Positions 2,202-57,107 of a DNA stretch of 64,000 bases are shown in pieces (the first letter of the stretch is position 1; each line of letters opens with the position of its first letter). Position numbers and translations under genes: made by a program. The notes beneath the pieces are model-generated. The model worked only from the letters and a program-made list of their open reading frames with translations, made no database searches and was not told the origin of the DNA. The DNA lies in assembly GCA_009785605.1 (NCBI GenBank), contig WQVY01000004.1, forward strand, positions 977 through 64,976, read 5' to 3'. This DNA is from Defluviitaleaceae bacterium. GTDB lineage: Bacteria > Bacillota > Clostridia > Lachnospirales > WQUN01.

Positions 2202-2999
2202 TCACGACTGCACAGATGAAGGTGTCGCTCCTTTATACTTCTTAAACAGCCGGCTAAAGTAGAAGACATCTTTAAACCCGCATTTGAGTGCTATTTCTGT
2301 GATACTCCCATCCCCGGCACGCAGCATGTCCTCTGCTTGGTTAAGTCTTATTGTATTAAGATAATCACGGAATGTGGTACCCACCTCCTGCTTAAACAAT
2401 ATGCCTAAGTAGTTGGGGGTAAGATGCACTTCTTTTGCGGCATCTGTAATACAAACTGGCTCTGTAAAATTGTTTGTAATATAGCGTATTGTGGCTTTAA
2501 TACGTGCGTCAAACCGGGATGTATCCACTTCATATAGCAACATTTCAAAAAAACGCTGCAAGATAAGCATAAAATAGGCGCGTACCCGCATTGTATATCC
2601 GGGGCCGCGCCTAAGCCAGTTTTCGTTGAGTCTTTTAAACAATGAGATTATGCCTTCATGTATGCCAACAGAAGCCACCAATGGCAAAGGGATATTAACA
2701 TCGTTGTTGCCGGTCCCAAGCTCAAGCCCATACATATTAAAGTTTACCGCGAAGCACTCTAACATTTCTGCCGTATGACTAATGGCAGAGCGGCTGGATT
2801 GCTTTGGTATGCACAACAAGTCCCCAGCAGATACGGCTATTTTTTCGTCATTGATTATGTAAACAGCGTCGCCGCCTATTATATAAGTCATATCCACAAA
2901 GTCCGTAATAGAAGGCTCTATCCGCCAGCCATATGTATCTTTGCGGTAACTAAAGTAGTCTATACACGGCACTGCATTGTCAAAATCATAACTGTTCAT
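2202..2999 (-). CDS. AraC/XylS-family transcriptional regulator
   Basis: The N-terminal half is cupin-like and the C-terminal half is a double HTH (ITEIALKCGFKDVFYFSRLFKKYKGATPS). It is divergent from the GH67 gene. Confidence 0.85.
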   Translation of the reverse strand: MNSYDFDNAVPCIDYFSYRKDTYGWRIEPSITDFVDMTYIIGGDAVYIINDEKIAVSAGDLLCIPKQSSRSAISHTAEMLECFAVNFNMYGLELGTGNNDVNIPLPLVASVGIHEGIISLFKRLNENWLRRGPGYTMRVRAYFMLILQRFFEMLLYEVDTSRFDARIKATIRYITNNFTEPVCITDAAKEVHLTPNYLGILFKQEVGTTFRDYLNTIRLNQAEDMLRAGDGSITEIALKCGFKDVFYFSRLFKKYKGATPSSVQS

Positions 3000-3201
3000 A
3001 TGCTCTCCCTAGAAAACACAAAGTTTCCTTACTATATCTATGTCTGTTTCAACCTGTCAAGGCTATAGTAATACCAATAAGATTTTATGTGAAATTGGTA
3101 CATGGAAATATGAAAAACATGGAGGAAGTGTGAAACATCCGCGAAGCGGATTTTCATACCAACCTATTTGTTCCGCCAACGAAGGAGGCATGAATTAAGT
3201 A

Positions 3202-9078: not shown

Positions 9079-11412
9079 CTACCCTTCCGAAATAACAGCT
9101 TCGGCTTCCTCAACTGGCACAAGCTTAGGGTAGGGGATACGTTCATGATACATCCCCTTTAGCACCCGTATAAACGACTCCGAAATTATAGCAATATCTT
9201 TGATTGTTAGCTGACTATCGGCTAATTGCCCGTCTACTAGCTTATTGCGGATAAGCCTATTTATGGTATCTTCCATTTCATTCTCAGAAGAAATGCTGGG
9301 CATCATAGCACGCACAGCCGCTTCAACAGTATCGGCAAGCATGACACAAGCAGACTCTCTCGTCTGGGGGACTATAAAGGGATATCTATAATCACCTTCA
9401 TCCACATCTTCACTTGATTTTTTGGCTTTGGCATAAAAAAATTGTATTAAGCTATCGCCATGATGCTCTTGGATTATATCACGCACAAACTGTGGCAGAC
9501 GGTGCTCTGCAGCCAAGGTTAGCCCATGGGATACATGGCTTATAATCATCTGTGCGCTTTCTATAGGGTCTAGATGGTCGTGTGGGTTGTCCCTATCAAT
9601 ATTTTCTGCAAAATATTGCGGGTATTTTAGCTTGCCAACATCGTGATAGTATCCACCAACCCGTGCAGCATGGGCATTGGCACCAATATCATATGCTGCA
9701 GATTCTGCTAAATTGGCAACAATAAGCGAATGATGATAAGTCCCAGGCGCTTCTATAGTAAGCCGCCTAAGAAGTAGATTTGTAGGGTTAGTTAAATCCA
9801 ACAACTTTACCGGAGTAACAACACCAAAAAACGTCTCCCAAATGGGCAAGCTACCGGTAGAAATTATTACAGTAAGCAGCCCGTTCAAAGACGCATATCC
9901 AGCCGTGACAAGTAACCCCGTAACATCATATACGGCCTGGATATTGCCGGTTATAAGCGCTATAGAAATAGACAATGTAAACTGAAGAAGCATGACAGTT
10001 GTGCCAACAATAAAAATCTTGTTCCTGTCTGTTGTAAAGCGGGAAAGCATGCAAATTAGCACACCCGATACAAGAAAGAACATAAGATAGTCCCATGACC
10101 CATCTACAATAAAATAACAAATCAAAATCAATGAAAACGAGAGTATGACAGCGCTCCTGCGCTCTATTAACACAGAAACCAACATAGGGAATATAAGTAT
10201 CGGAAGGAATTGATATCCAAAATCACTAAAAGACCATACAAGTGTAATCACAAGTACATACAAGGTAAATAAGAGTAAGGCCTCACGCTTATTTGCGGCA
10301 ATAGTAGGCCGATAAAAAGACAAATACATGATACATGCCAGAAAAAGCAGCGCCGTGATAAAAAAAGTACCAGCTATAGGAAGCACAAAATCACTTATCG
10401 TGACATCTTCAAGCAGCCCCAACTCACCCAGGATGTAATATACATCTGGTGTAACAATATCACCGGCATTAACAATAGTTTGCCCCTCTAGCAATGTAAC
10501 TACGATATAATCTGCAGCTACGATATCTCTTTGGCGCTGGGTCGCGGCATAGTCGACTATAAGATTTATTGCTAAGTGTTCTATGACAATTCTTTCTACA
10601 ATATCGCGGTGGTTTTGTGATAGAGGCCTTGCGCCCAAGTTTTCGCGCACAGCATGCAAAGTAAGAGGGCCAACTTCGCTTATTTCTGTTGCTTGTACGG
10701 TATATGCCACATCAATGACGGTTTCCCACAGGTCTGCATAGGTTTCATTGTCCATAGATATGATTAACTGCTGCTGGATTTCGGTAAAAACAACAGGTAA
10801 CAAAGCAAATTGGTCCCATACTTCAAACACAGGCTCTATTGGTTCTGGATATGCGGGGGGCACTGGCCTTGGAGGTAACTCGCCCATATCTTCGTTGCCT
10901 GCTTCTATGGTTGCACGTTGGATTTCCCATTCTTCTACCGCAATGTTGTATAGAAGCATTTGAGCTTGGAATTCCGTTTGTTGGTCCCTTAGCATACGTT
11001 CAAATTCATATATTTCTTGTATATGAAACTCACGTATACCTGTCATATTATTAGCCAAGAAATCAAGAGTATGCTCCACAAGTGGCCATACATTAGGGTC
11101 CAAGACCCTTATTGGGGGAAGGGCATCAGCTAAAGCTTGTGCTTCTTGGCGGTTATGTTCTGTCGCGGGGGTGTTAATCATGTCATCGGGGGCAAAGATG
11201 CTTATGTTTGAAGGTTGGTTTACGGTAATACCTTGTAAACCTTGCTCTGCCCTGAAATATGAACCAGACGCAATAGCGCCACATGCCAATACAAAGGCAA
11301 CTAAAACAAGGGCCCCATTTAGCAGACGGTTTTTCTTCGCGTCACTGCCTGGCTGAACGGGCCCATTGTGCACTGCCATGGTTTTTTTATTTTTTTCTGT
11401 TGTGGTTATCAT
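9079..11412 (-). CDS. pgpH: 7TM-receptor/HD-domain phosphohydrolase (PgpH/YqfF family, candidate c-di-AMP phosphodiesterase)
   Basis: Has an extracellular N-terminal domain, about 7 TM segments, and a C-terminal HD domain (HHSLIVANL ... YYHDVGK). It follows phoH as in the conserved phoH-yqfF-ybeY arrangement. Confidence 0.85.
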   Translation of the reverse strand: MITTTEKNKKTMAVHNGPVQPGSDAKKNRLLNGALVLVAFVLACGAIASGSYFRAEQGLQGITVNQPSNISIFAPDDMINTPATEHNRQEAQALADALPPIRVLDPNVWPLVEHTLDFLANNMTGIREFHIQEIYEFERMLRDQQTEFQAQMLLYNIAVEEWEIQRATIEAGNEDMGELPPRPVPPAYPEPIEPVFEVWDQFALLPVVFTEIQQQLIISMDNETYADLWETVIDVAYTVQATEISEVGPLTLHAVRENLGARPLSQNHRDIVERIVIEHLAINLIVDYAATQRQRDIVAADYIVVTLLEGQTIVNAGDIVTPDVYYILGELGLLEDVTISDFVLPIAGTFFITALLFLACIMYLSFYRPTIAANKREALLLFTLYVLVITLVWSFSDFGYQFLPILIFPMLVSVLIERRSAVILSFSLILICYFIVDGSWDYLMFFLVSGVLICMLSRFTTDRNKIFIVGTTVMLLQFTLSISIALITGNIQAVYDVTGLLVTAGYASLNGLLTVIISTGSLPIWETFFGVVTPVKLLDLTNPTNLLLRRLTIEAPGTYHHSLIVANLAESAAYDIGANAHAARVGGYYHDVGKLKYPQYFAENIDRDNPHDHLDPIESAQMIISHVSHGLTLAAEHRLPQFVRDIIQEHHGDSLIQFFYAKAKKSSEDVDEGDYRYPFIVPQTRESACVMLADTVEAAVRAMMPSISSENEMEDTINRLIRNKLVDGQLADSQLTIKDIAIISESFIRVLKGMYHERIPYPKLVPVEEAEAVISEG

Positions 11413-13435: not shown

Positions 13436-15289
13436 TTAATAGTGGTTGGCCCTTGTTGCCACAATTGTGTACCGCTGCGAGCTGCTTTGATTGTAGCCTA
13501 GCAAGGTTAATATATCTTGCCCAGGTTGTATAGTTAGTGCATCGGTATTTATTGTGCTGCCCTGATAAATATTAACAACTGTATATATGACGGTTTTATG
13601 GAAATTTGTGATATGAATCTCATCGCCAACACTAACATTGTTTATATTTTCAAGCAAACTTGTACGCCTTTGCCCTTCGCGACCTGCAATTATTGTATTT
13701 GTATTGGCTCCGCCTAAAGGCAATGAGGTGCCGGTTACATGAGCCAAGCCGCGGCTTAAATTACCATTGTTTGCACCCATATATAGGGGTAGCTCAGCAT
13801 CTATGCTTGGGATAGTAACAAAACCAATCATCTCACTATATTCGAAGCCAAAGTGATTTAAGTTTACATTGGGCTGGTTAGCATCAAATGGGTCCGGCAA
13901 ATTACCCATACCCGACTCATATAGACGATGGTTGTATTCCGCCATCCTGTCGTATAGCCATGACAGTGGGCTTTCAAATGTGCCTTCGCCCGGTGCTGCG
14001 AGCTCACCACTTTCCATCCATCGTCCTATTTGTTCGGCGACCCACCGGTCTCTATATTCGGTTTTATAGTCATCTATCATAGTTACAAAATTATATATTG
14101 CTACCTGGCTACTGCTGCCCGGGCGGCTAAAATTTTGTGACACCCCAATACCAATAATTATGATTAGCATCAACGATATAAAGCCAGTAGCGATATATCT
14201 TGACATGCTTGGTATAGGTGAAAATCCCTTTCTTTTGCTACGAGCATTTTTACCTATTAGTGCCGGTTTTAAGGGTTTTATGGTTTGCGCTATTTTGTTG
14301 TCATTGACTCTTGCTGGCTGTGTATGGACTTCATAACTTGGGGGTGAGGTTTGACTTTCTAGGTCATTAAACATGTCGTCGATAGTTAACCCATTGTACC
14401 TATCATGGGTTACTATTGCAGCTACTGGGGTAGGATGGACCGTCCTGGGACGCCTTGCGTTAGTAGCTTCTTTTTTACCTTTTAAAGCGCTATACACAGC
14501 AAAGACGACCATAAATAACAGGAACAAGCCTACAAATATATAAATACGGATATCGACTCTTGGCTCGATAATATTCTGTACAATTTCTGCTGCCATATAC
14601 GGTATATACTCGGTTCGTCTACCACGCACAAGCCAACGATGGGAATTAATACCATATGGCGTGCATGTCATTAGCGTTACAAAGTCTTCGCCTGGTACAA
14701 TGCGGAAATGTTCCGTTTCCCATGGCAAAATCCTAATTACGTGGTCAACTTCATATGCTTTTCTAACACCCATTACTGTTATGAAAAATTTGTCACCAAT
14801 ATGTACGTTTCCTTCTAAATCATTAAACATCCTGGCGTTGGCAAGCCCTGTATGGGCCGTAAGGACAGAGTGAGTGCTTTCGCCACCAATAGGGAAAGCC
14901 GTACCCTCCATATGTCCAACACCTCTATCAAGTGCATTGTGACCGGTAGAATGGTAAATGGGCATATTAACGCCTATAATTGGTATCTCGATACGGCCCA
15001 TTACCCCGCCTACATATAAGATTTCAAAATAATCCTCTGGTAAGGGGGCTAGGTGTGCGAGTAATAATTGGGTCGTTGACCGAGCAAGTTCGTTATTTAC
15101 TTCTTCGGCACGGCGAAATTGGTTTGCGATATGCTCCTGGCTTAGCCTGGCAACTTCTTCGTCATAAATTAAAGCAATACCCCGCTGGATACGGCTATTC
15201 CACCAACTAGCAACATCTGGATAAAATAACAACGACAAGCCAAAAATCAACATTATTGCAACAAAAATTGTAGGTAAATGCCTTCTCAC
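13436..15289 (-). CDS. class C sortase fused to a second, degenerate (His->Arg, Cys->Tyr) sortase module
   Basis: GTG start with a GGGGG RBS. Module 1 has an N-terminal TM, VLTAHTG, TLMTCTPYGINSHR and a C-terminal TM. A basic linker and third TM follow. Module 2 has PDPFD, GGANTNTIIAGREG and DILTLLGYNQSSSQR. Confidence 0.8.
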   Translation of the reverse strand: MRRHLPTIFVAIMLIFGLSLLFYPDVASWWNSRIQRGIALIYDEEVARLSQEHIANQFRRAEEVNNELARSTTQLLLAHLAPLPEDYFEILYVGGVMGRIEIPIIGVNMPIYHSTGHNALDRGVGHMEGTAFPIGGESTHSVLTAHTGLANARMFNDLEGNVHIGDKFFITVMGVRKAYEVDHVIRILPWETEHFRIVPGEDFVTLMTCTPYGINSHRWLVRGRRTEYIPYMAAEIVQNIIEPRVDIRIYIFVGLFLLFMVVFAVYSALKGKKEATNARRPRTVHPTPVAAIVTHDRYNGLTIDDMFNDLESQTSPPSYEVHTQPARVNDNKIAQTIKPLKPALIGKNARSKRKGFSPIPSMSRYIATGFISLMLIIIIGIGVSQNFSRPGSSSQVAIYNFVTMIDDYKTEYRDRWVAEQIGRWMESGELAAPGEGTFESPLSWLYDRMAEYNHRLYESGMGNLPDPFDANQPNVNLNHFGFEYSEMIGFVTIPSIDAELPLYMGANNGNLSRGLAHVTGTSLPLGGANTNTIIAGREGQRRTSLLENINNVSVGDEIHITNFHKTVIYTVVNIYQGSTINTDALTIQPGQDILTLLGYNQSSSQRYTIVATRANHY

Positions 15290-15429: not shown

Positions 15430-16266
15430 TTAGGTAGCATGCTCAATGATTGGCGGATTACGTCTTTCGCGCCATATAAAAAAATGAACGACAAGAAATG
15501 CTGCAAACACAACAACGCGCCCCCGAAACCCTGTGGATATAGGCATAACTGTAACTTCATCTTGCATGTAGTATGCATATGGGACCCTAACGCCACGTAC
15601 AAGCAGCCTATGTGTATTTATCGTGATTGGCGTACATGTAATTAGTGTCATTAAATCCTTACCAGGGGTTACACGTAGAAGTTCTATCTCATGGGGTAAG
15701 ACAGTATATATCTGGTCGACTTTATATGCCAGCCGTTGACCTAAAACAGATACAAAAAAGATATCACCATAATTAAGTAAGTGTAAATCCGTAAACAATC
15801 GTACACCTGCAAGCCCAGAATGAGTGGTCAATACAGAGTGCGTACCGTATCCGCCTATTGGAAATGCCGTACCTTCTAGGTGGCCAACACCCCTACTAAG
15901 GATATTGGGTCCTGTCCCGTGAAGTACTGGAAGGCTTACATCTATTGTGGGTATATCTATCCAAGCCATTACACCTTGTACATATAGGGTCTGATTATAG
16001 TCGTATGGAAGTATGGCTATATCCCCAAGCAACAACGGCTCAGACGATTCTAAGCTGCTTAACTGTGTGTTGTGTGTAGCCGCACGGTGTAGCTGCTGTT
16101 TGACTTGTTCTGGTGTAAGCAGTGATACCATCCTATCATATTCGCGAAGGATGGCATCATGAACCAATGTTTTTTGTAAATTGCTGATATCCGGGTAAAA
16201 CAACAATGTAAACCCGGATATCATAAAAATAAATGCAAATATTGTTAAGATGTGTTTTTTTCGCAT
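15430..16266 (-). CDS. class C sortase
   Basis: Has an N-terminal TM and FYPD. Catalytic motifs are VLTTHSG, TLITCTPITINTHRLLVRG and a C-terminal TM. Its start codon overlaps the stop of the upstream oxidoreductase (TAATG). Confidence 0.9.
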   Translation of the reverse strand: MRKKHILTIFAFIFMISGFTLLFYPDISNLQKTLVHDAILREYDRMVSLLTPEQVKQQLHRAATHNTQLSSLESSEPLLLGDIAILPYDYNQTLYVQGVMAWIDIPTIDVSLPVLHGTGPNILSRGVGHLEGTAFPIGGYGTHSVLTTHSGLAGVRLFTDLHLLNYGDIFFVSVLGQRLAYKVDQIYTVLPHEIELLRVTPGKDLMTLITCTPITINTHRLLVRGVRVPYAYYMQDEVTVMPISTGFRGRVVVFAAFLVVHFFIWRERRNPPIIEHAT

Positions 16267-17372
16267 TAATCTAGAATCCCTGGTAATAGGCCTGTTTTCA
16301 TGGGTGCTGGCCTATCTGGTGCAGACAATATTGGTACCTGTTTGCCACTTTCTGCACTCACTGAAAAGCCTGTCATGACTTCAAGCACATGATGTGTAAT
16401 ATCCACACCAGCGCGGGCTTTGCGCCCGGTTTGGATGGCTTTTGCCATGTCTGCAAGGCCTAACCCACGGCTGTTGTCTGCATAGCCAAAGGTTAGTGGT
16501 ATCTCCATGTATGTTTTGCTTTCTGGGCGATATAGCATTACTGGGCCGCCAAATGTGTTGGGGTCTGGTACAGACAATGTGCCCTCGGTACCATATACCT
16601 CTAATATAGGCAGTTTGTGAGCATGGACATCAAAAGACTGGATTATCGTACCTATTGCACCACTTGCAAATTCCATTTGGCCGGCTATATGAGTGGAAAC
16701 TTCTACATCTACAATGGTGCCGTAATGGGGTTGGCTTGTGATGCGACGTGTAGGATATGATTTTTTTGCCATACCGTTTACGGCTTTAACGGCGCCTATA
16801 AGGTTTACCAGTGCTGTTATATAGTATGGACCCATGTCCATCATGGGGCCGCCGCCAAACTGGTAATAAAATGCCGGGTCCGGATGCCAAGACTCGTGGC
16901 CCCTACATGCAAAAAAGGCTGTTGCGGCTACAGGCTTACCTATATATCCGTCATCTATAAGCTTACGACATGTTTGGATACCAGCCCCAAGGAAGGTGTC
17001 TGGTGCACCGCCTACCATTACACCTTTGGCTTTGGCCGCGTCTCGTATTTTTGTACCTTCTTCGAGTGTGGCACCTAGGGGTTTTTCCGAATATACGTGT
17101 TTACCTGCATTAATTGCTGCCATGCTTACATCGTAATGTTCGTATGGGCGGGTGATGTTAAGCACTATGTCTATGGTTGGGTCACCAAACATCTCGTGCA
17201 TGTCTTTGTATTTGCGTGGTATGTTGTATGTGGACACTGCTTTTTCGGCTTTACTGTCCACCAAGTCGCAGACCCCTGCAATTTCTAGCTCCTTAAACAG
17301 GTTGGTTAAGTTTGTTAAGTAGATGCCACTGATATCCCCGCATCCAACTATACCTATACGTGTTTTTTGCAT
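16266..17372 (-). CDS. Gfo/Idh/MocA-family NAD(P)-dependent oxidoreductase
   Basis: The N-terminal Rossmann motif is RIGIVGCGDISG, with an EKP motif (YSEKPLG). Confidence 0.85.
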   Translation of the reverse strand: MQKTRIGIVGCGDISGIYLTNLTNLFKELEIAGVCDLVDSKAEKAVSTYNIPRKYKDMHEMFGDPTIDIVLNITRPYEHYDVSMAAINAGKHVYSEKPLGATLEEGTKIRDAAKAKGVMVGGAPDTFLGAGIQTCRKLIDDGYIGKPVAATAFFACRGHESWHPDPAFYYQFGGGPMMDMGPYYITALVNLIGAVKAVNGMAKKSYPTRRITSQPHYGTIVDVEVSTHIAGQMEFASGAIGTIIQSFDVHAHKLPILEVYGTEGTLSVPDPNTFGGPVMLYRPESKTYMEIPLTFGYADNSRGLGLADMAKAIQTGRKARAGVDITHHVLEVMTGFSVSAESGKQVPILSAPDRPAPMKTGLLPGILD

Positions 17373-17541
17373 TTACCTCATGCCTCCTTCGTTGGCTTAA
17401 CAAGTATGCTACCTATTGTATATTATTGTATCTTACTTAACATTGCAATAACAATCTTGTGATACGCGCACAAAGCGTCTTTCTTGTGGTATACTGCAAA
17501 TATTCGCAGAAATAAGGCAAAATTGTAATCGTACAAAAGAG

Positions 17542-19590
17542 GTGAGCTTTGCGGTGAGAGATTGGCTATCCCGGTCAGCACTGCGGGTTGAAAATGTAGG
17601 TATTATTAAGGCCATAAAAGATGGGTTTGCTGGTATTATGCCGGTGCTACTCATAGGGGCTTTTATTTTTATGCTTGTAGAGCTGGAGATCCCGTTATAC
17701 TTGGATGCCATGCGCGTCCCTGGTATATACTGGCATATCACTTTCGAGCAGATATATCGCGGGGCCCTTGGTATTATTCCTATGGCTGTTGTTATTTCTG
17801 TAAGTTATACGCTGGCGCTTCATTCGCCGCATTATTCTAGTAGGGTGCTTAGCCCGTTGGTTCCTTCTCTTGTTGGGTTTTCGTGTCTGTTATTGCTTAC
17901 CGCTGTACCGGGTTTTGGTGCACGGTTTGTGGACATAGGGCCAGGTGGGGTCTTTCTTGCGGTGGTTGTGGCTGTTGTGTCACATCTACTTTTCTTTTTT
18001 TTCTATAGGTTTCGTCTTATTGTTGTTAGGCCCAAGGCCGCTACAGCATATCTTGCACAGGTTGTATTGCTTCTTGAGCCTGTACTTTTTACTATCTTAG
18101 TCTTTGGCGTATTGCGGTACGCTTTTAATGTCTTTGGTATATACAATATCCCCAATCATATCACTGAGCGCGTTATTAATATGCTTGCCGGGATTTACAA
18201 CGGTATAAACAGCCCTGTGCTATTTGTAATGATATTTACATTTATGTACCAGTTATTATGGTTCTTTGGACTGCACAATGGCGAAATTGTCCCTAGTGTG
18301 GCAGAGCATGTTGATTGGTCTTATGTGCTGTGCCCGGATTTTTTTCAATTTTTTGTATTGGCAGGCGGAGGTGGGGCTCTTGCGCTTATTGTGGCTATAC
18401 TAATTGTGCGGAGTAAAAGCGCTTCGCGTCCGGCTCTTTTTTCTTTGCCTATGGGCCTTGCTAATATTGGTACGCCTGTACTTTATGGTTTACCGGTCTT
18501 GTTTAATCCTATCCTTATTATCCCCTTTATATTTGCGCCTATGGTATCGGGTATGGTTGCTCGCATTGCGGTTTCTGCAGGTATGAATGCAACCGTTATT
18601 GCCGGGGTTTCTTCTACATTGCCGCCGGGTATAAGCGGGTGGATGGCGACCGGCTCTTTAATGGCGGGTTTTATACAGGTATTGACTTTGGCCATTAGCG
18701 TCCTTATCTACTTACCCTTTGTGTGGATAGCCAATAACACCAGCGAAGAACGAAGTGACTTTGCAATAGAGGAACTTATGTCACGGGATGCTGCACCTTA
18801 CCTTGCACGTAAAGATGATGTTGGAGTCTTTGCCCGTTCTCTTTTCGAAGAAATGGAGTATGACCTAAGGCGTGGGCGAGGTTTTTATTTAGAATATCAA
18901 CCAATGATTGACAGCCACAACCGAATGGTTAGCTTTGAGGCAAGAGTGCGCTATAGGCATGCATCTTTGGGGCCACTACCACCACAACTGGTACATGCCC
19001 TTGCCGAAGAAGGCCGACTTTTGGGAAATATAAATATTTTTGTGATGGAAGATGCCCTAGCTACCCTTCACAGTTTAAGAGAAAACGGCTTTACGGATTT
19101 ATTAATGACAATTAACCTTTCACCCAAAGAGCTAAGCAAGCCAAAAACAATAAAAATTATAAAGGATATGCTGGCGAAATATAACATAGATCCAACATAT
19201 GTAAGAATCATATTGTCGAGCCATGAAGTGCTGGACCCGGGCTTTGACCCATGGACGCTCATGAGTGCCTTAAGTGCTATTGGGTTAAGGGTAATTATTA
19301 ATAATTTTAGCTTACAACTAACACATTTTAGCAACCTGCAACGGATGGGCATAAAAGCTATCAAGTTAAGCAGCGCACTTACCCATGAAGTACAGTTTAA
19401 CGAGCTTAGCGCCAATGTAATAAAAGACATTGTAGAGCATGCAAAGCCCATGACCATTAGCGCCGAAGATATAGAATCTAAAGCGCAATATGACTTGTTG
19501 GTGGAACTAGGCTGTGAAATATTCCAAGGCAAATATTTTTCCAAACCAATGGAAACGGCAGATTTGTCGCTATATCTAAGGTTGAAATAA
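17542..19590 (+). CDS. PTS EIIC-like (lactose/cellobiose family) membrane domain fused to a degenerate EAL domain
   Basis: The N-terminal IKAIKDGFAGIMPVLLIGAF plus about 10 TM segments resemble EIIC. The C-terminal ~250 aa carries EAL landmarks: EYQP, FEARVR, NLS, AEDIES and FQGKYFSKP. The DDFG and KID positions read NNFS and KLS. Confidence 0.75.
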   Translation: MSFAVRDWLSRSALRVENVGIIKAIKDGFAGIMPVLLIGAFIFMLVELEIPLYLDAMRVPGIYWHITFEQIYRGALGIIPMAVVISVSYTLALHSPHYSSRVLSPLVPSLVGFSCLLLLTAVPGFGARFVDIGPGGVFLAVVVAVVSHLLFFFFYRFRLIVVRPKAATAYLAQVVLLLEPVLFTILVFGVLRYAFNVFGIYNIPNHITERVINMLAGIYNGINSPVLFVMIFTFMYQLLWFFGLHNGEIVPSVAEHVDWSYVLCPDFFQFFVLAGGGGALALIVAILIVRSKSASRPALFSLPMGLANIGTPVLYGLPVLFNPILIIPFIFAPMVSGMVARIAVSAGMNATVIAGVSSTLPPGISGWMATGSLMAGFIQVLTLAISVLIYLPFVWIANNTSEERSDFAIEELMSRDAAPYLARKDDVGVFARSLFEEMEYDLRRGRGFYLEYQPMIDSHNRMVSFEARVRYRHASLGPLPPQLVHALAEEGRLLGNINIFVMEDALATLHSLRENGFTDLLMTINLSPKELSKPKTIKIIKDMLAKYNIDPTYVRIILSSHEVLDPGFDPWTLMSALSAIGLRVIINNFSLQLTHFSNLQRMGIKAIKLSSALTHEVQFNELSANVIKDIVEHAKPMTISAEDIESKAQYDLLVELGCEIFQGKYFSKPMETADLSLYLRLK

Positions 19591-20138
19591 TGGCATATTG
19601 GAAAACACAGGGCCTACGTGGTAGTACATTTGAAGAAATGATAAACCTTACCAACCAGCTATACCTACAGCGTGGGCTTGGGATTATTCAAAAAATCCCA
19701 ACACCAATAACTCCAGTAGAAGTTAATAACAAAGCCAGGATTATCACCTCTGCATACTTCGAAAAAAAAAGCACAGTAGACTTTATAGGTGTTGCCCAAG
19801 GCTTGGCTATATGCTTTGACGCAAAAGAGACTAACCAGCTAAACCTACCAATGCGCAATATACACGCCCATCAAGTAGACTTTATGGAGAACTTTCGCAA
19901 GCAACAAGGTGTTAGTTTCTTGCTGGTAAACTTTTTATCCAAAGGTGAAACGTTTCTCTTGCCTAGCGAAACACTAGCCCGGTATCATGGGCTGGCACAA
20001 GACGGTGGGCGCAAGTCCATACCATATCGTGATTTTAACCCTGATTTAATAGTACCCAACAAAAATGGCTTTCCTGTACACTACTTGGTTGCAGTAAACG
20101 CCTATCTCAAACAGCCAAAGGAAGGAAAATCTCCATGA
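19590..20138 (+). CDS. recU: Holliday junction resolvase RecU
   Basis: The N-terminal GLRGSTFEEMINLTN...GIIQKIPTP and the FDAKET catalytic region are typical of RecU. Its start overlaps the upstream stop (TAATG). Confidence 0.85.
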   Translation: MAYWKTQGLRGSTFEEMINLTNQLYLQRGLGIIQKIPTPITPVEVNNKARIITSAYFEKKSTVDFIGVAQGLAICFDAKETNQLNLPMRNIHAHQVDFMENFRKQQGVSFLLVNFLSKGETFLLPSETLARYHGLAQDGGRKSIPYRDFNPDLIVPNKNGFPVHYLVAVNAYLKQPKEGKSP

Positions 20139-20899
20139 GCCGAATTATTGCAGTAGCCAACCAAAAAGGTGGGGTAGGGAAGACCACCACAAATGTAAAT
20201 TTATCTACCTGCCTGGCCCAGGCGGGCAAGCGTGTACTTGTGGTAGATATGGACCCACAAGGCAACAGTACAAGTGGTTTTGGGGTGGACAAGTATGGTC
20301 TGCAAAAGACCGTATACGATTTACTTATTGGCGAAGCAACTCTAGAAGATGTAATCTTGCCTGTGTGCGCAGACGGTGTGCGCTTGCTACCGGCCAATAT
20401 CAACCTTAGTGGCGCAGAAATAGAACTAATTACAATGCCAGACAGGGAGTACAGGTTAAGAGAAATATTTAGTCGTACACGTTATATGTTCGACTACATA
20501 TTTATCGACTGCCCGCCCTCTCTTAACTTGTTGACGCTTAATGCCTTGTGTGCCGCCGACTCTGTGCTTATACCCATCCAGTGTGAGTACTACGCCCTAG
20601 AAGGGTTAACACAGCTTATGAATACGATAGCCCGTGTACAACGTAAGCTTAACCCGCGGCTGGTTATAGAAGGGGTTGTGTTTACTATGTATGACTCACG
20701 TACCAACCTTAGCAGCCAGGTAGTAGAAGAAGTGGAGAAACATCTTGGGTCACATACTTACAGGACAATAATCCCACGCAATGTGCGGCTAAGTGAAGCA
20801 CCAAGCCATGGGCTGCCTATTACGCTATATTCCGCAGACTCGCGAGGTGCGGAGGCATATAGGCTACTGGCACAAGAAATGATAGAAAAGAAACACTGA
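20135..20899 (+). CDS. parA: ParA/Soj chromosome-partitioning ATPase
   Basis: Contains the deviant Walker A NQKGGVGKTTT. It overlaps recU by 4 nt (ATGA). Confidence 0.9.
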   Translation: MSRIIAVANQKGGVGKTTTNVNLSTCLAQAGKRVLVVDMDPQGNSTSGFGVDKYGLQKTVYDLLIGEATLEDVILPVCADGVRLLPANINLSGAEIELITMPDREYRLREIFSRTRYMFDYIFIDCPPSLNLLTLNALCAADSVLIPIQCEYYALEGLTQLMNTIARVQRKLNPRLVIEGVVFTMYDSRTNLSSQVVEEVEKHLGSHTYRTIIPRNVRLSEAPSHGLPITLYSADSRGAEAYRLLAQEMIEKKH

Positions 20900-20925
20900 C
20901 TTAACCGAATAGAGGAGGGACTACT

Positions 20926-21831
20926 ATGAAAGCAGGCTTAGGCAGAGGGCTAAACGCCCTACTAGACGCGTCGCGTCAAGACGATACCAATATCATACAA
21001 CAACCGTCATCCTCTGGCGGGGTAATGATGGTAGATATACGCAAAATAGAGCCAACCAAGGACCAGCCGCGTAAATATTTCGATGAAGCAGCCCTGGAAG
21101 AACTAGCTGCGTCTATGAAGGAATACGGGGTAATATCGCCTCTTGTAGTCAAGGAAAACGGTAAAGTTTATACAATTATTGCCGGTGAGCGCCGTTACCG
21201 CGCTGCGCGCATTGCAAAGCTGCCGGAAGTACCGGTTATTGTAAAGGATTATTCTGACGGGGATATATTGCAGGTAGCGTTGATTGAGAACATTCAGCGG
21301 CAGGACTTAACATCTATAGAAGAAGCCGTATGCTATAAACGGCTAATGGATGATTTTTTCTTTTCTGCAGATGATATTGCAACCAAAGTTGGAAAGAGTA
21401 AACATGCCATTATTAGCGCATTGCATCTATTGGAGTTGGATGTACGTGTACAAGTGCTGGCAGGGGAGGGTAAGCTGTCTACCAGCCATGCAAAAGTACT
21501 CCTACAAGTAGAAGACGGAGATTTGCAACTATACTGTGCCGAAAAAATAGTAGAAGAAGGGCTAAGTGTACGCGGTACGGAGTCCCTGGTTACCGCAGCG
21601 CTTAAGGAAGCATCTAAACTTGAAAAAGAGCCCTATGAAGCAGAAACCCCTGACGATGTACCCGAAGAAGTACTACGCGCATATAGGCGCGCAGAAGATG
21701 ATTTAAAACAAGTGCTAGGCTCTAAAGTAAATATCCGTCCCGGAAAGAAGAAAGGACGGATAGAAATAGAGTACTACTCACCAGACGAATTGGAGCGGTT
21801 GCTACAGGTATTGGGGCGAGCCGGGTCATGA
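20926..21831 (+). CDS. parB: ParB/Spo0J partition protein
   Basis: Contains IAGERRYRAA (ParB box II) and an HTH region. It sits immediately after parA. Confidence 0.9.
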   Translation: MKAGLGRGLNALLDASRQDDTNIIQQPSSSGGVMMVDIRKIEPTKDQPRKYFDEAALEELAASMKEYGVISPLVVKENGKVYTIIAGERRYRAARIAKLPEVPVIVKDYSDGDILQVALIENIQRQDLTSIEEAVCYKRLMDDFFFSADDIATKVGKSKHAIISALHLLELDVRVQVLAGEGKLSTSHAKVLLQVEDGDLQLYCAEKIVEEGLSVRGTESLVTAALKEASKLEKEPYEAETPDDVPEEVLRAYRRAEDDLKQVLGSKVNIRPGKKKGRIEIEYYSPDELERLLQVLGRAGS

Positions 21832-21849
21832 TACGACCAACCTCCAACC

Positions 21850-22464
21850 CTACCAAAGATGCAAATTATTGATAAATTTCAAGGACTCTGGCTTTTTTAG
21901 GTCTATCAACTCGCCAGCTGTGACAAAGCCGTATTCTTGTTCTTTTAATGCATGGATTATGATTTCAAGTGCCTCCACAGTCTGATGGTTGCCTTCAAAA
22001 TCATGCATTATTAGCACAGCACCGTCATGGGCTTGGCTTAACGCCCTATCTACACGGAACGCAACATCATTGTTGCTGTCATAATCTGCTACATGATACC
22101 CGTCAATAAATGTGAGAGGGACTGCCGCGTATATTTCATCATTTTCTGCGATATAAGGTGAGCGAAATATCTTTGGTTTTTGCCCAATGGCTTCGAATAT
22201 CTTTTTTGTTGCGGATGCCACTTCTTTCTTTACGTCATCGATGCCTAAGTGGGTTAGATTAGGATGGTTTTCGGTGTGGTTTGCTATTTCGCAGCCCAAA
22301 GCAACAGCACGTTGCATCACCTTTGTTGTCTCTGGAGTAATGTTGCATCCTTTGACAAAAAACGTAGCTACAGCGTCATGCTTTTCAAGTATGTCTAATA
22401 TTTGGACGGTAATTGTTGTATTTGGCCCATCGTCAAACGTGAGCGCGATTACTGGTTTGTCCAT
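21850..22464 (-). CDS. polysaccharide deacetylase (CE4 / NodB homology domain)
   Basis: Contains LTFDDGP, a HT.NH-like motif (ANHTENH), and RSPY. Confidence 0.8.
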   Translation of the reverse strand: MDKPVIALTFDDGPNTTITVQILDILEKHDAVATFFVKGCNITPETTKVMQRAVALGCEIANHTENHPNLTHLGIDDVKKEVASATKKIFEAIGQKPKIFRSPYIAENDEIYAAVPLTFIDGYHVADYDSNNDVAFRVDRALSQAHDGAVLIMHDFEGNHQTVEALEIIIHALKEQEYGFVTAGELIDLKKPESLKFINNLHLW

Positions 22465-23280: not shown

Positions 23281-24651
23281 TCATAGCGGCTCCTTAATTT
23301 TATGTTCGAGTTTGTAAAGTGCTACGAGCTTTTTTACATCCTCGAATGTAGGGTTGTGGAAGAAAAACGCTCCTTTGATGCACCAAAATCGCCCGTCGGG
23401 GTCGAGGCGAACGCGATTATTACATGTATCCAGCGTGCCCTTTTTCTCTTTACATCTGTAACAACCACCCCAGCGGGTGGTAAATGATTCGGGGAAGCGA
23501 GTTTTGAGCCATTCAAATTGTTCAGGATGAGATGCGTACACTTTGGGGAAAGCGACTTTAATGGACAAGTCGTAGGGTGTGCTGTGCAGAAATTCTTCCT
23601 CATGATAAGATGAGCCTTTGCCAACGAGCAGCCATTCTTTGCTGCCTTTTTTGTAGAGATAGCAGTACAGTTTATCCTCGCCTGTTGGGGCGAATCCGCA
23701 TTTTACAGCTTCATCGTAAAGCCAATAGTAGATTTCGCGTAGATGTGGTGGTTCACCGTCAGTTTTTGCAAGGAAGAAGGTTTCGTGGGATTGAGTCGCG
23801 GGGTATTGTACGAAGCGGTAAGAAAAATAGCGGACATGATATGCATTTTTTGGATTTTTGTCTTTGAAGTATTCGCAAAGAACAGTTATTGCATGGGGTA
23901 TATCAGCAAATGATATGTTGAACACAGGAATTCCGGGTTCGTTGTAACCTTCGACTTGCATCCCCATGTCATTTAATTTGTTTATAAGCAACGAAGTTTT
24001 TTCTATCGGGTGGCAGAGAAGCTGCTCGTCGATGCGTTGTTTGGAATGGTCGATAAAGCACTGTTTATCTACATACAATACTCCATTTTTTTCGTGTCCG
24101 CAGGCAACCAAAGCATTAAACAAAATGACCACGCGATTTTGGACAAGCCCTAACCAAGTCAAATCATTCCAAGTTGGGAAGCCCCAATCAAAAGGCAAAC
24201 CACGTTCGATTTCGTCATATACGGCGTATAAAAATTCCTGCAATGCCTTAAATGCACTGACAAATTCGTCGTTGGACAAGTTACCTAAATGCACGGGGTT
24301 AATAATCGTGTCATCGGGAATAAATACCATGCCGGTTTTATATGCCCGCATTATTTTACGTGCTTCGCCTTCAAACGTATCCTGGATATATTCGTGATAC
24401 GCATTTGCAAATGCAGGGTCAAACTGCTCACTCGCAACGGCATATTCGTTAAGCATCGCAAATTTATTTTTATCTCTGCTGACATACCCGCTCCAACGGT
24501 TTCTGATAAAAGCATCAATTGATTTGGCGGTTGGCAATTCGTTGTTTAATTCATCGTAATACGAACTTATAAAGCCAATGCGTTCATCAATGTATTTTTG
24601 TTTTTTCTTTCTTGCAATAAGGTATTGCATATAATCTTCCACGTTCTTCAT
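23281..24651 (-). CDS. hypothetical protein (456 aa), family not recognised; C-terminal Cys cluster
   Basis: A strong AGGAGG RBS lies upstream of the ATG at 24651 and the ORF is long and uninterrupted. The C-terminal sequence is GGCYRCKEKKGTLDTCNNRVRLDPDGRFWC (CxxC-x9-C-x13-C). I could assign no family. Confidence 0.5.
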   Translation of the reverse strand: MKNVEDYMQYLIARKKKQKYIDERIGFISSYYDELNNELPTAKSIDAFIRNRWSGYVSRDKNKFAMLNEYAVASEQFDPAFANAYHEYIQDTFEGEARKIMRAYKTGMVFIPDDTIINPVHLGNLSNDEFVSAFKALQEFLYAVYDEIERGLPFDWGFPTWNDLTWLGLVQNRVVILFNALVACGHEKNGVLYVDKQCFIDHSKQRIDEQLLCHPIEKTSLLINKLNDMGMQVEGYNEPGIPVFNISFADIPHAITVLCEYFKDKNPKNAYHVRYFSYRFVQYPATQSHETFFLAKTDGEPPHLREIYYWLYDEAVKCGFAPTGEDKLYCYLYKKGSKEWLLVGKGSSYHEEEFLHSTPYDLSIKVAFPKVYASHPEQFEWLKTRFPESFTTRWGGCYRCKEKKGTLDTCNNRVRLDPDGRFWCIKGAFFFHNPTFEDVKKLVALYKLEHKIKEPL

Positions 24652-24983: not shown

Positions 24984-26510
<1,527 letters not shown>

Positions 26511-28790: not shown

Positions 28791-29825
28791 CTAATTAGTA
28801 TTTACAATAGGCGATGCATAAGCAATACTTGACTCTGGAAAGCCAACTCCAATCTTGTAGTACCCATAAAATGACCCGTGATGGCAAAGGTCAGCCCTAA
28901 GCCCCCCAAACAAAATTTCTATTTCATCTACATCCGGGAAACTGGCAAACGTCAGCAGCACCACACGTGCATGAAGCCAAAAACTTGCTGTACCCATTGT
29001 AAAATCAGCCCACTGGTTAGGTTTTAAGTCCACAATTATTCGCCTATCTTCGTACCAAAAATCTAATATTTCTATACCGCTATATAGTTTCTTAAGGCGT
29101 ATAGTTTCTTCCCATAACATCTCACCAGGGATTTCCTCTATATGATAAGTCTCGGTAAGGTACCCTGTAGCATAGCACGCGCTATGTATTTGTACTGTTA
29201 CGCTTTGCGCGTCGGTTATGTGGCGGCGGCGGTCCTGCCAATTATCCAGTACGACGCTAAGCCCCCGGCCTCTTGCCCACGGGAATATAAAGCCAACTAT
29301 TTCCCAGTGCATGTTGTACTCGCATATTACGGTGTAGTTTAATACAACATCGGGATGCATGCGCCACCACTGGCCCGGCTCTTGCGATTCATATTGCACC
29401 CGTGCAATTGCATACCCAATCCCAAGAAATATGCTGTCTTCATAAAATATTCCCAGCGTCTCCCTCCCTGTCCCAAGCACTTCTTCCCAAGGGAGGTAGG
29501 TACTGTTCTGTATCAAGTTTTGGCGGATGCGCTCTGGTGTCCATACCCCAAGCCAGTTAATAGTGGGCCATGCAAGCTCATGCTGCACATGTGCAACTTC
29601 GCGATTTTGGTAGTGCCTGACTTGGTTTTGCAAGTCGCTTATTATATCGCTTTGGGTCTGTAGCTGTTGATGAAGTTCATATATTTCTTCATCAGTTGAT
29701 TCCTCTTGCTGCCTACAACCGCTTAATATTAACATAGCAGCTACCATGGCTAAAAAAAGCATAAATATGTCCAACCTGGAGTTTGGCATATGTACTATTG
29801 AATTTTTTGTAATTTTGTTTACCAT
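28791..29825 (-). CDS. hypothetical lipoprotein with a coiled-coil segment
   Basis: I prefer the ATG at 29825 because AAGGGGG lies 7 nt upstream, rather than the longest ORF starting at 29909. The signal peptide has the lipobox LILSGC. I recognised no family; the C-terminus is vaguely GerMN-like. Confidence 0.55.
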   Translation of the reverse strand: MVNKITKNSIVHMPNSRLDIFMLFLAMVAAMLILSGCRQQEESTDEEIYELHQQLQTQSDIISDLQNQVRHYQNREVAHVQHELAWPTINWLGVWTPERIRQNLIQNSTYLPWEEVLGTGRETLGIFYEDSIFLGIGYAIARVQYESQEPGQWWRMHPDVVLNYTVICEYNMHWEIVGFIFPWARGRGLSVVLDNWQDRRRHITDAQSVTVQIHSACYATGYLTETYHIEEIPGEMLWEETIRLKKLYSGIEILDFWYEDRRIIVDLKPNQWADFTMGTASFWLHARVVLLTFASFPDVDEIEILFGGLRADLCHHGSFYGYYKIGVGFPESSIAYASPIVNTN

Positions 29826-29912
29826 GTATTTGCCCCCTTGGTTATGACCATAAACACTACAGTCATATTGTACACCAAAGGTAAAAATTAATGAACCAAA
29901 AGGAGCCATACT

Positions 29913-30852: not shown

Positions 30853-32382
30853 CTATTTCATAAGTCTTTGAGTCCCAGTAACACTTGGCGGTGTCATATA
30901 CAAAGTGTTGGTATCACTAGAAGGTACTATACCTATATTTGTATAATCGCCATCAAATGTATCTGTATCATTCAAATCATGGATATTGTTAAAGTTCGCA
31001 TTATAATCGTAATCACCTACGTTGTCATCATAGTCCCAGTCAGCAGCCAAGCTTGTTGGCACAGGGCTTGTAGCTGGTGCTGGTGTTGGTATAGGTTGCG
31101 TACGGTTGATGCTGTTAAAACGGTTTGGAGTTGGGGCCTGCGGGCTGTTTGTAGGAGCTGGTGTGGTTGGGGCTGCATCGTCAGTAGCTTTGTTTTTCTT
31201 AAAAATCGCAAGGCTGTTACTATCATCTGATGCGTTGGCTGCTATAGATGGCCCTAAACTTCTGCTATATTCCGCATATGGGAGTCCACCATATACGCCA
31301 TTTACATCGTCATTGCTCATATAAAAGTCAGGACCTAAATACATACTGTTGTTGAGCCCACGATGGGTGAGGTTAAAGTCATTGATATTTACATTATCAG
31401 GGCGCGTTAGGCGGCTTGTATTGTTTATACCCACGCTACGCTCAGCGGTACGCGCGATACTGCGGTTTTGGTTATCACGCCCAGCACGGTTAATACCCCT
31501 AGTACGGTCAATGCCACGGGTTGCATTTGGGTTAACTACTGTGTTGGCATTCATAATAGGTGCGGCTGGGGTAATGCTTGTATTAGAACGGTTGTTTAAT
31601 ACATTTTGACGAAGTTCGCGTACTCTTTCCGTTCTTGCAGATGGTGTGCGTGCGGCTTGCCTGTTAGTAGCAGACCTGGTTGTGGTTGCACGATTTACTG
31701 CACCAGTGTTTACGTTGTTGTGGAGCATGGGCTGCGCAGCACTAACGCTAGTTCTTGGCGCTTTGCGTGTTGGCCTGGCAGCTTTTGTGGCAGTATTTTT
31801 TGCTGCATTGGTGCTGCGGGTAATGCCTGTGCTTGTAGCACGTTTTTTGGTTGTTGTATTTCTGGTTGGTGTGCTTCTTACTACGCGGTTGTTTAGGTTT
31901 GCGGCATTTTCTGTTGGTGTGTCTAACCTGTTACGCATACCCAAATCGTATCCACCGTATTCGCCATCTACACTGTTTGTATATAACCCAGGATTGTCAT
32001 ATCCAAAAGTGTGACCAACACGGCCGCGGTTAATCGTACCAGCGCTTCGGTTGGGAGTACGGTGCGTGGGTAAACCAGTATTGTTATGGTTGTTGGTTAA
32101 TCCAGCACCAGGGCGCGCGACATGGTTACTACTCCGGGTCCTGGCAGTTACATCGTTACGGGTAGCTCGTCTAAACCCACGATTAAAACCCCGTACTGTA
32201 CGTTCGTTTGTATTGTGCGTACGTGTTAGCCCGTATGAGTCGGTCCTGCGGTTAACGGCATCAACTACGCGCTGGCCGTTTCTGTTTCCCTGGTTGGTTT
32301 CAGGCAGGTTGCTGGAACAGCCTGTTACTGCAATCATACCTGCGACCATCCCGGTAACAAGAATTCTTCTCCAGTTTTTCAT
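30853..32382 (-). CDS. Asn/Thr/Arg-rich low-complexity lipoprotein
   Basis: GGGGGA RBS. Signal peptide with lipobox AVTGC. About 350 aa are dominated by N, T, R, S and A, followed by a PT-rich stretch and an acidic D/Y/N-rich tail. Confidence 0.6.
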   Translation of the reverse strand: MKNWRRILVTGMVAGMIAVTGCSSNLPETNQGNRNGQRVVDAVNRRTDSYGLTRTHNTNERTVRGFNRGFRRATRNDVTARTRSSNHVARPGAGLTNNHNNTGLPTHRTPNRSAGTINRGRVGHTFGYDNPGLYTNSVDGEYGGYDLGMRNRLDTPTENAANLNNRVVRSTPTRNTTTKKRATSTGITRSTNAAKNTATKAARPTRKAPRTSVSAAQPMLHNNVNTGAVNRATTTRSATNRQAARTPSARTERVRELRQNVLNNRSNTSITPAAPIMNANTVVNPNATRGIDRTRGINRAGRDNQNRSIARTAERSVGINNTSRLTRPDNVNINDFNLTHRGLNNSMYLGPDFYMSNDDVNGVYGGLPYAEYSRSLGPSIAANASDDSNSLAIFKKNKATDDAAPTTPAPTNSPQAPTPNRFNSINRTQPIPTPAPATSPVPTSLAADWDYDDNVGDYDYNANFNNIHDLNDTDTFDGDYTNIGIVPSSDTNTLYMTPPSVTGTQRLMK

Positions 32383-54909: not shown

Positions 54910-55280
54910 TAAAATCACGCGAAGACCTAATGAACTTACGAAACAAATACAGGGACGATGTAATTATGCGTCTTATCTCCTATGATTCCTCTAACCGCAC
55001 AGAAGTAATGGTAGGCATGGCAGATTGCGGCATTGCCGCAGGTGCCAGGGACACCCTTAAAGTGCTCTTTGACGAGGTCAACAACGCCAGGTTGGAAGAT
55101 GTTTCGGTAATAGCAGTAGACTGTATGGGCAACTGCGACAACGAGCCTATAGTGCAAATATCAACCCCTGGCAAACCTGTAATACGATACAAAAAGGTAG
55201 ACACCGCCCTGGCAAAAGAAATAGTAGCCAAGCACCTGGTAGGCGGGAGTATCTTAGACCACGCAAGGATGGAGGTATAA
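54906..55280 (+). CDS. small thioredoxin-like (2Fe-2S) ferredoxin-domain subunit
   Basis: Contains GMADCGIAAG ... CMGNCDNEP. It sits between the NuoE-like and NuoF-like genes, as in four-gene hyd operons. Confidence 0.75.
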   Translation: MIKSREDLMNLRNKYRDDVIMRLISYDSSNRTEVMVGMADCGIAAGARDTLKVLFDEVNNARLEDVSVIAVDCMGNCDNEPIVQISTPGKPVIRYKKVDTALAKEIVAKHLVGGSILDHARMEV

Positions 55281-55281
55281 C

Positions 55282-57093: not shown

Positions 57094-57107
57094 GAGGCCG
57101 TCTAGCG

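Follow-up and report, generated by a model that had tools for sequence, protein, structure and literature searches.

The stretch of DNA analysed here, the window, is 64,000 nt of contig WQVY01000004.1 (positions 977 to 64,976 of the forward strand) from the Defluviitaleaceae bacterium assembly GCA_009785605.1. Our subject is a gene on its forward strand that encodes a full-length enzyme IIC (EIIC) of the lactose/chitobiose (Lac/Chb) type of the phosphotransferase system (PTS), fused to an EAL domain of the kind that hydrolyses cyclic di-GMP (c-di-GMP), with both folds intact. The gene heads a string of four that continues with recU, parA and parB. The key residues of both halves are altered, in this protein and throughout the clade to which it belongs, and the protein is very probably a selectively maintained pseudoenzyme derived from a family of presumed EIIC-EAL sensor-phosphodiesterases.

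The open reading frame (ORF) is uninterrupted from 17542 to 19590 and gives 682 aa counted from the first GTG. We take the GTG at 17554 as the likely true start, giving 678 aa, because there is a Shine-Dalgarno sequence 11 nt 5' of it and the homologues, which are about 678 aa in length, all open with M/V-RDWLS; the first GTG overlaps the ribosome-binding site. Residue numbers are nonetheless those of the 682-aa frame from 17542. The best promoter candidate lies in the divergent intergenic region 5' of the gene and is a consensus match only, the count of such sites in the region being not above shuffled expectation. In a search of expression data the EIIC-EAL sequence was present only in DNA runs from termite-gut metagenomes. 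The ATG of recU overlaps the EIIC-EAL stop codon (TAATG, and the same TAATG is present in the related locus L096), parB follows parA after 26 nt, the gene after parB is convergent, and there is no convincing terminator within the string. The features are collected in Table 1.

Table 1. Features of the EIIC-EAL gene and its string, with coordinates in the window
Feature	Coordinates	Strand	Basis or remark
Best sigma-70-like promoter: TTAACA, 16/18 nt spacer, TATATT/TATTAT	17397..17426	+	Consensus 10/12
Shine-Dalgarno sequence AAGAGG	17537..17542	+	Sequence; homologue starts align with 17554
EIIC-EAL gene	17554..19590	+	ORF call, Pfam, homologue starts
PTS EIIC domain, lactose/cellobiose/chitobiose family, residues ~14-404	17581..18753	+	Pfam, TIGR00410, ChbC, Foldseek, hydropathy
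His245 (ChbC His250, sugar-coordinating), kept in WFFGLH	18274..18276	+	Alignments; 21/21 clade, 134/144 canonical
N-I-G-T replacing N-I-N-E; Thr311, Gly310	18463..18474	+	Glu in 138/144 canonical, 0/21 clade
Juxtamembrane linker, residues 405-447, motif R-x-D-x-x-G-x-x-A-R-x-L	18754..18882	+	Alignment
EAL domain, residues 444-669, TIM-barrel-like, catalytically degenerate	18871..19548	+	Pfam, PDB alignments, TM scores
Y-Q-P ... F-E-A-R-V-R; Gln453, Glu466 and Arg470 kept; Leu of E-A-L is Arg/Lys in the clade	18895..18951	+	Alignments
N-L-S; Asn525 (N233) kept	19114..19122	+	Alignments
I-L-S-S replacing E-x-T-E; E265 to Ile, E268 to Ser	19210..19221	+	Alignments
Loop 6: N-N-F-S-L-Q-L-T-H replacing D-D-F-G-M-G-H/Y-S/T-S	19300..19326	+	Alignments
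K-L-S replacing K-x-D; K316 kept, D318 to Ser	19363..19371	+	Alignments
A-E-D-I-E (E352 equivalent kept) and Q-G (Gln662 kept)	19462..19530	+	Alignments
recU (Holliday-junction resolvase)	19590..20138	+	Pfam RecU, 5.2e-56
parA/soj-type ATPase	20135..20899	+	Overlaps recU by 4 nt
parB/spo0J-family gene	20926..21831	+	TIGR00180, 164.7 bits vs cutoff 58.45; last gene of the string

The original prediction, made from the letters alone, had assigned the N-terminal part to EIIC, in part from the string IKAIKDGFAGIMPVLLIGAF, and the C-terminal part to a degenerate EAL domain, and had proposed a Pfam scan as a check. Both assignments are well supported. Pfam PTS_EIIC (PF02378) matches over residues 27-333 with E 1e-20 and 74.5 bits (cutoff 30.7; model positions 2-319 of 319), and Pfam EAL (PF00563) over residues 444-669 with E 1.4e-38 and 133 bits (cutoff 31.3). 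For the N-terminal half the nearest NCBIfam subfamily is TIGR00410 (lacE), with 153.4 bits, which is under its curated cutoff of 236. In a single-sequence search against solved structures ChbC (3QNQ) matches residues 22-404 with E 8.9e-23, and the family profile aligns residues 8-408 with ChbC 12-438 (E 3.7e-59); active EAL domains, among them those of BifA, MorA and MucR, match the C-terminal half with E 1e-20 to 1e-23. Hydropathy gives about 10 hydrophobic segments in the EIIC part. The motif strings quoted in the prediction (IKAIKDGFAGIMPVLLIGAF, EYQP, FEARVR, NLS, SSHE, NNFSLQLTH, KLS, AEDIES and FQGKYFSKP) are all at the expected places.

An AlphaFold model based on an alignment of 132 sequences has a pLDDT of 93.3 and a pTM of 0.88; a model from an 18-sequence alignment (pLDDT 62, pTM 0.40) was discarded. 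The EAL half of the accepted model superposes on the EAL domains of BifA, MucR and MorA with a target-normalised TM score of 0.90-0.92 and an rmsd of 1.7-2.0 Å, and its membrane half is matched to ChbC by Foldseek with a probability of 1.0. The tenth transmembrane segment (TM10) runs on as a single helix over residues 373-413.

The condition of the EAL half was judged by residue-by-residue alignment to active EAL enzymes, with positions in RocR numbering, and on the yardstick of Seshasayee et al., which uses 7 catalytic and 4 c-di-GMP recognition positions (PMC2952852). The catalytic positions E175, N233, E265, E268, D295, K316 and E352 read E, N, I, S, N, K and E, so that 4 of the 7 are kept, and of the recognition positions Q161 and R179 are kept while D296 is Asn and D318 is Ser. 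In the numbering of the protein the residues kept are Gln453 (Q161), Glu466 (E175), Arg470 (R179), Asn525 (N233), Lys608 (K316), Glu642 (E352) and Gln662 of the Q-G pair, and those replaced are E265 (I557), E268 (S560), D295 (N587), D296 (N588) and D318 (S610). Q161 and R179 serve in substrate binding and E175, N233, E265, D295, D296 and E352 in metal coordination (PMC7911125), and by that list both substrate-binding residues are present and 3 of the 6 metal ligands are lost. Loop 6, which is essential for dimerisation, metal binding and substrate binding (PMC12943098, PMC3032553), reads NFSLQLTH in place of DFG(T/A)GYSS, where canonical members of the family have DFGMG(H/Y)(S/T)S; it is rewritten and yet fixed across the degenerate clade.

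Hydrolysis of c-di-GMP by this domain would thus be very unlikely, because catalytic and metal residues and loop 6 are lost. The motif changes that had been pointed out (DDFGTGYSS to NNFSLQLTH, E-x-T-E to I-L-S-S and K-I-D to K-L-S) are borne out by the alignment to active enzymes. The proposal built on them, of c-di-GMP binding without hydrolysis, has to be divided: the absence of hydrolysis is supported, as several catalytic residues are gone, and binding is plausible and no more, with 2 of the 4 recognition residues and most FimX positions kept. Most of the positions used by the FimX receptor (PMC7288161), when mapped by motif, are conserved in the window protein, namely the Gln of YQP, the Arg that follows EAL, the equivalent of E352 and the Q-G pair; the Leu of EAL reads Arg.

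In the EIIC half, alignment to ChbC places His250 at His245, and the ChbC motif N-I-N-E334 at N-I-G-T311, with Glu334 replaced by Thr311 and Asn333 by Gly310. Glu334 and His250 hydrogen-bond the sugar, and are the sole binding-site residues common to the Chb, Glc and Mal EIICs (PMC11393339, PMC8193941). The description of this half as a sugar-binding membrane module is weakened accordingly: the EIIC fold is confirmed, and one of two conserved sugar-coordinating residues is lost, together with a change in its neighbour.

The extent to which these changes are peculiar to the window protein can be judged against the family at large, which is substantial. An exhaustive HMMER search of 1.84 billion representatives gave 345 clusters (50 % identity) at E<1e-30, and most of the best 150 matches are about 700 aa long and match in a single stretch over residues ~15-680. 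When prokaryotes were scanned at one genome per species, 193 genomes had relatives. It is a large family both in gut Clostridia and in many Proteobacteria: clostridial carriers include Blautia producta (strain DSM 2950 is a named example), Faecalicatena, Anaerocolumna (A. sedimenticola), Geosporobacter (G. ferrireducens), Lachnospira and Bittarella, and proteobacterial carriers include Azoarcus, Methylophaga, Roseibium, Shewanella and Pseudomonas. The linker positions R423, D425, G428, A431, R432 and L434 are common to the family. The canonical members are presumed to be sugar-sensing c-di-GMP phosphodiesterases. In a 2022 review PTS_EIIC is listed, from Pfam architectures, among the rare partner domains of c-di-GMP enzymes (PMC8846402), and in the literature searched that listing of the domain pair was all we found, with no characterised EIIC-EAL member. 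The view that the architecture is uncharacterised would therefore seem correct as regards experiment, and has to be given up as regards novelty, the fusion being catalogued and widespread.

For 13 key positions we compared 165 full-length members in one alignment, treating separately the 21 members of the clade that includes the window protein (at least 67 % identical) and the 144 outside it. Among the 144, all 7 catalytic residues are present in 140, all 4 recognition residues in 139, the H250 and E334 equivalents together in 131, and all 13 residues in 127. For the 21 clade members each of these four counts is zero. E268, D318 and the ChbC-E334 residue are lost in 21/21, the last being replaced by T, S, A or M, and D296 is lost in 19/21. 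E265 is still Glu in 13/21, and about 60 % of the clade keep E265 and D295, both of which are lost in the window protein, which is among the most degenerate of the clade; 3 members are without even the Glu of E-A-L. On these alignments the degeneracy is specific to one clade, and affects both domains.

In the maximum-likelihood tree the clade forms a single monophyletic group (support 1.0) on a stem of 1.23 substitutions per site, a length beyond the 95th percentile for branches. Canonical members surround it, and P0115 and P0116, which branch off as its successive sisters (support 0.99/0.98), have complete sites. The nearest canonical relative is the protein P0115, from a Lachnospiraceae metagenome-assembled genome (locus L013). 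There are 14 positions that are at least 85 % conserved in canonical members and fixed to another residue in the clade, and 12 of the 14 are in active sites, at 307 and 310 in the EIIC sugar site and at 464, 471, 559, 560, 588, 591, 592, 595, 598 and 610 in EAL motifs.

It could be argued that the EAL domain has kept phosphodiesterase activity by means of an unusual metal site, in which, say, Asn587/Asn588 and Glu562 stand in for the residues that are missing. E175, N233, K316 and E352 are kept, Glu562, two residues past the lost E268 position, is conserved in the clade, and the retention of E265 and D295 by the greater part of the clade also speaks for it. We nevertheless consider it very improbable, given the clade-wide loss of E268, D318 and a loop 6 that is called essential, the loss of D296 in all but two members, and the further absence of E265 and D295 from the window protein itself. 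The DD to NN change (NNFGTGYSS) is also present in PDB entry 4rnf, which is titled as a 'mutant phosphodiesterase' of MorA.

Loss of residues considered essential from both domains is also what one would expect of a decaying relic, a functionless pseudogene in the making, and here the analysis of nonsynonymous (dN) and synonymous (dS) substitution is decisive. Within the clade dN is 0.10-0.25 and dS is saturated, giving a dN/dS ratio (ω) of about 0.05-0.13 in both domains, and this led us to reject the pseudogene explanation, which also has against it that the reading frame is intact in at least 21 clusters from independent samples, that the substitutions are fixed and concentrated in active sites, and that the translational coupling is conserved; we give it almost no credence. 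The linker is if anything under more constraint than the domains. It is 85-96 % identical between pairs of clade members, and over residues ~401-460 its alignment columns score 0.91-0.95 for conservation within the clade, compared with 0.22-0.45 among canonical members, making it the most conserved segment of the clade. Taken together, these comparisons indicate targeted remodelling followed by strong maintenance, not decay.

The selection data bear also on the suggestion that the EIIC half is a working carbohydrate facilitator or ligand sensor, of altered specificity and uncoupled from phosphorylation, which the dead EAL domain would gate or regulate from inside in a LapD-like manner. The 10-TM EIIC fold and His245 are kept under purifying selection (ω ~0.07-0.13), the sugar-site changes (F307A, N310G, E311T/S/A) are specific and fixed, not scattered, and the termite-gut host and a neighbourhood rich in xylan-degrading enzymes would suit such a role. 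Missing, though, is the sugar-coordinating Glu of all EIIC families examined, and the operon is without sugar-catabolic genes, the partners being recU and parAB. We regard the suggestion as unlikely.

With regard to gene context, the order EIIC-EAL, recU, parA, parB is present at every clade locus examined: the window (L010), L001/L002 (83 % identity), L003/L004/L011 (70 %), L012 (68-69 %) and L096 (70 %). The genes flanking the string, which recurs at six independent loci, fall into three unrelated arrangements. Neither recU, parA nor parB adjoins a canonical EIIC-EAL gene in any of about 75 loci. We considered that recU-parA-parB might be an ordinary cluster beside which the EIIC-EAL gene had merely landed, and rejected this on finding recU alone, without parAB, in 5 other Defluviitaleaceae, where the RecU proteins are 71-77 % identical and lie in three distinct contexts; at two further loci, from other Clostridia, recU is likewise present and parAB is not. 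The string is a lineage-specific assembly that has resisted the rearrangements around it, because it is absent from canonical loci and from the other recU loci of Defluviitaleaceae and is kept despite changing flanks.

The parA-parB pair is in a neighbourhood (recO-era-ybeY-phoH ... dnaG-sigA-rho) that is not origin-like. When the window was searched for parS (TGTTNCACGTGAAACA) with at most 3 mismatches allowed, the sole match was a palindrome at 5376 with 3 mismatches, which chance alone would account for, and there are no short inverted repeats in 17300-22000. As had been noted from the sequence, there is no EIIA or EIIB gene nearby: the ORFs of the window that were scanned include no EIIA, EIIB, EI, HPr, GGDEF or PilZ (47820-51005 and 54906-58844 were checked for the GGDEF motif only), and EIIA and EIIB are likewise absent within ±10 kb of relatives. 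A scan of the whole window against Rfam gave no match at gathering thresholds, and so no c-di-GMP riboswitch.

The reading we favour for the function of the protein, although we would put its chances at about even, is that it is a membrane-anchored receptor or adaptor that is catalytically dead and retains the binding of c-di-GMP or pGpG. Along a single long stem branch the clade replaced the sugar/phosphotransfer Glu of EIIC, at least three metal or catalytic residues of EAL, and the entire loop 6. The EAL pocket, no longer hydrolytic, would probably bind c-di-GMP or pGpG independently of metal, as in FimX and LapD, because Gln453, Arg470, Asn525, Lys608, Glu642 and Gln662-Gly663 are kept. 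In LapD loop 6 is the 'switch loop' that passes on c-di-GMP binding (PMC3032553). Loop 6, rewritten and since fixed, and the juxtamembrane linker, which has become invariant in the clade, may then be the output surface through which the protein, being neither transporter nor enzyme, would signal to a partner whether nucleotide is bound and possibly also whether the altered EIIC pocket is filled. The only candidate partners that the sequence offers are the co-translated RecU, ParA and ParB.

Several observations count against binding of a nucleotide or against these partners. D296 and D318 are replaced by Asn and Ser, the Leu of E-A-L has become Arg or Lys, and there are the 3 clade members that lack the Glu of that motif; of the EAL-only proteins in which the catalytic site has been lost, 91 % have lost the binding site too (PMC2952852). 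The 64-kb window, as far as the ORFs scanned and Rfam go, carries neither a GGDEF or PilZ gene nor a c-di-GMP riboswitch, the literature search turned up no binding or activity data on any family member, and the link to recU and parAB is one of synteny only, in one family-level lineage.

Much of the same evidence would be accommodated if the protein were an adaptor or scaffold blind to c-di-GMP, in which the EAL domain acts by protein contacts, as in YdiV, BluF/YcgF and CsrD, and the EIIC half anchors it in the membrane or serves as a platform for dimerisation. RecU, ParA or ParB could again be the partner, with, for example, segregation or resolution factors tethered to the membrane. The near-complete loss of D296 and D318 in the clade, the replacement of the Leu of EAL, the members without its Glu, and the tendency of catalytically degenerate EAL-only proteins to lose the binding site as well (PMC2952852) all fit this, and newly invariant linker and loop 6 sequences are as expected of a new interaction surface; the coupled recU-parA-parB string is strictly conserved in the clade and absent elsewhere. 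The difficulty is that Gln453, Arg470, Asn525, Lys608, Glu642 and Gln662 are conserved under strong selection, which is hard to explain if the pocket is unused, and operon neighbours need not interact physically. We therefore keep this as a serious but clearly less probable alternative to a nucleotide-binding receptor.

A more specific proposal is that the protein is an adaptor that couples the level of c-di-GMP, or a carbohydrate cue sensed by EIIC, to chromosome segregation and Holliday-junction resolution by binding or positioning RecU, ParA and/or ParB. We offer it as speculation that is more likely to fail than to hold by a good measure. Were these proteins indeed the targets, second-messenger or nutrient sensing would be linked to chromosome handling in Clostridia, and we know of no such link to the ParABS/RecU machinery described so far. 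If the operon partners are not targets, this is one more degenerate-EAL protein of an uncultured termite-gut lineage, and of modest interest.

The clade has value as a natural experiment, in which both catalytic centres were dismantled in what looks like one evolutionary step while the protein, its linker and its switch loop stayed tightly conserved, and as such it would be a clean case for how a sensor-enzyme turns into a receptor or adaptor. The EIIC-EAL architecture was already in databases, and degenerate EAL domains are well known. What appears to be new is a clade in which both halves of the fusion have been inactivated together, the constraint on linker and switch loop, and the operon with recU-parA-parB.

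Some observations on other genes may be useful to those working on these genomes. Around canonical EIIC-EAL genes, when the neighbours at 37 loci were clustered, no family recurred at more than 6 of them, and none resembled EIIA or EIIB. A GGDEF-domain protein is within 5 kb in 6 of the 37 (for example L028, 5110-6030), and a LytTR regulator and histidine kinase are near others, with no neighbour conserved family-wide.

At recU loci elsewhere in the Defluviitaleaceae, an HPr - whiA - rapZ - murB - HPr kinase cluster lies convergent to recU in L091 (6552-11633) and L095 (6531-10185), from which it can be seen that HPr and HprK occur in Defluviitaleaceae, though there are no EII components near EIIC-EAL. 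In L092 (6506-9824) and L094 (6476-9739) recU is convergent with an unannotated ORF of 175-185 aa, followed by an MshEN-T2SSE ATPase and RmuC. In MshE, the MshEN domain is a module that binds c-di-GMP. L094 also has, at 1537-1995, a CdAMP_rec protein (cyclic di-AMP (c-di-AMP) receptor).

In the window itself there is a sortase pair at 13436-15289 (-) and 15430-16266 (-), the larger (617 aa) with two sortase-domain matches; the pair is kept in the 83 % relative L001 and absent at the loci of the 70 % relatives. In the conserved phoH-ybeY-dgkA cluster, some 6 kb away from the EIIC-EAL gene, a 777-aa 7TMR-HDED / 7TM-7TMR_HD / HD protein, which we take to be of the PgpH-type family of c-di-AMP phosphodiesterases, is encoded at 9079-11412 (-). 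A fusion of a cytidylyltransferase-like (NadD-type) domain and an HD domain is encoded at 40950-42197 (+), 21 kb from the EIIC-EAL gene, and in L096 such a gene (2534-3784) is directly upstream of the string and divergent, which illustrates the rearrangement around it. A GH67 alpha-glucuronidase (3202-5118, +), a SASA-type carbohydrate esterase (14-1324, +) and an alpha-L-arabinofuranosidase (24984-26486, -) fit a xylan-degrading termite-gut organism. Five ORFs, at 61479-64000 (+), 23281-24651 (-), 30853-32382 (-), 36200-37255 (-) and 28791-29909 (-), of 840, 456, 509, 351 and 372 aa respectively, are without a Pfam match at E<=1e-5, and the 509-aa product opens with a lipoprotein-like signal (...VTGCSSN).

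With regard to known systems, the closest are the canonical EIIC-EAL proteins, with which the window protein shares domain order, a length of about 700 aa, the linker motif and the lack of EIIA/EIIB neighbours, and in whose tree it is nested. It differs in the 13 key residues, complete in most of them and in no clade member, and in the recU-parA-parB association, which they do not have. For the N-terminal half the best comparison is ChbC, the N,N'-diacetylchitobiose EIIC of Bacillus cereus (PDB 3QNQ; PTS Lac family). Homology is full-length, the fold is the same and the His250 equivalent is present; the window protein differs in the Glu334 to Thr and Asn333 to Gly changes, in having no EIIA or EIIB partners near, and in the EAL domain fused at its C-terminus.

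LapD of Pseudomonas fluorescens and FimX of Pseudomonas and Xanthomonas also have a catalytically dead EAL domain, which in their case is the sensor. LapD is, like the window protein, a membrane protein with a non-consensus loop 6, the switch loop in LapD, and in the case of FimX the resemblance extends to most of the contact positions and to a superposition of the EAL domains with a target-normalised TM score of 0.82-0.87. Both, however, are built around a degenerate GGDEF-EAL tandem, accompanied by HAMP or PAS/REC domains, whereas the window protein has EIIC and no GGDEF, and the similarity to LapD is weak (NCBIfam LapD 24.7 bits, cutoff 1020). Proteins of the YdiV, BluF/YcgF and CsrD type have lost most nucleotide-contact residues too. 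They share with the window protein an EAL fold without catalytic residues, which may be a pure interaction module, but the window protein keeps the equivalents of Q161, E175, R179, N233, K316, E352 and Q372, and its match to the NCBIfam CsrD model is only 27.8 bits, against a cutoff of 663. Finally, PTS components are linked to c-di-GMP turnover in Vibrio cholerae also, through EIIA-Glc and PdeS (PMC8846402). There the link is in trans, between phosphorylated EIIA-Glc and an active phosphodiesterase, while here it is an EIIC that is joined in cis to an inactive EAL domain.

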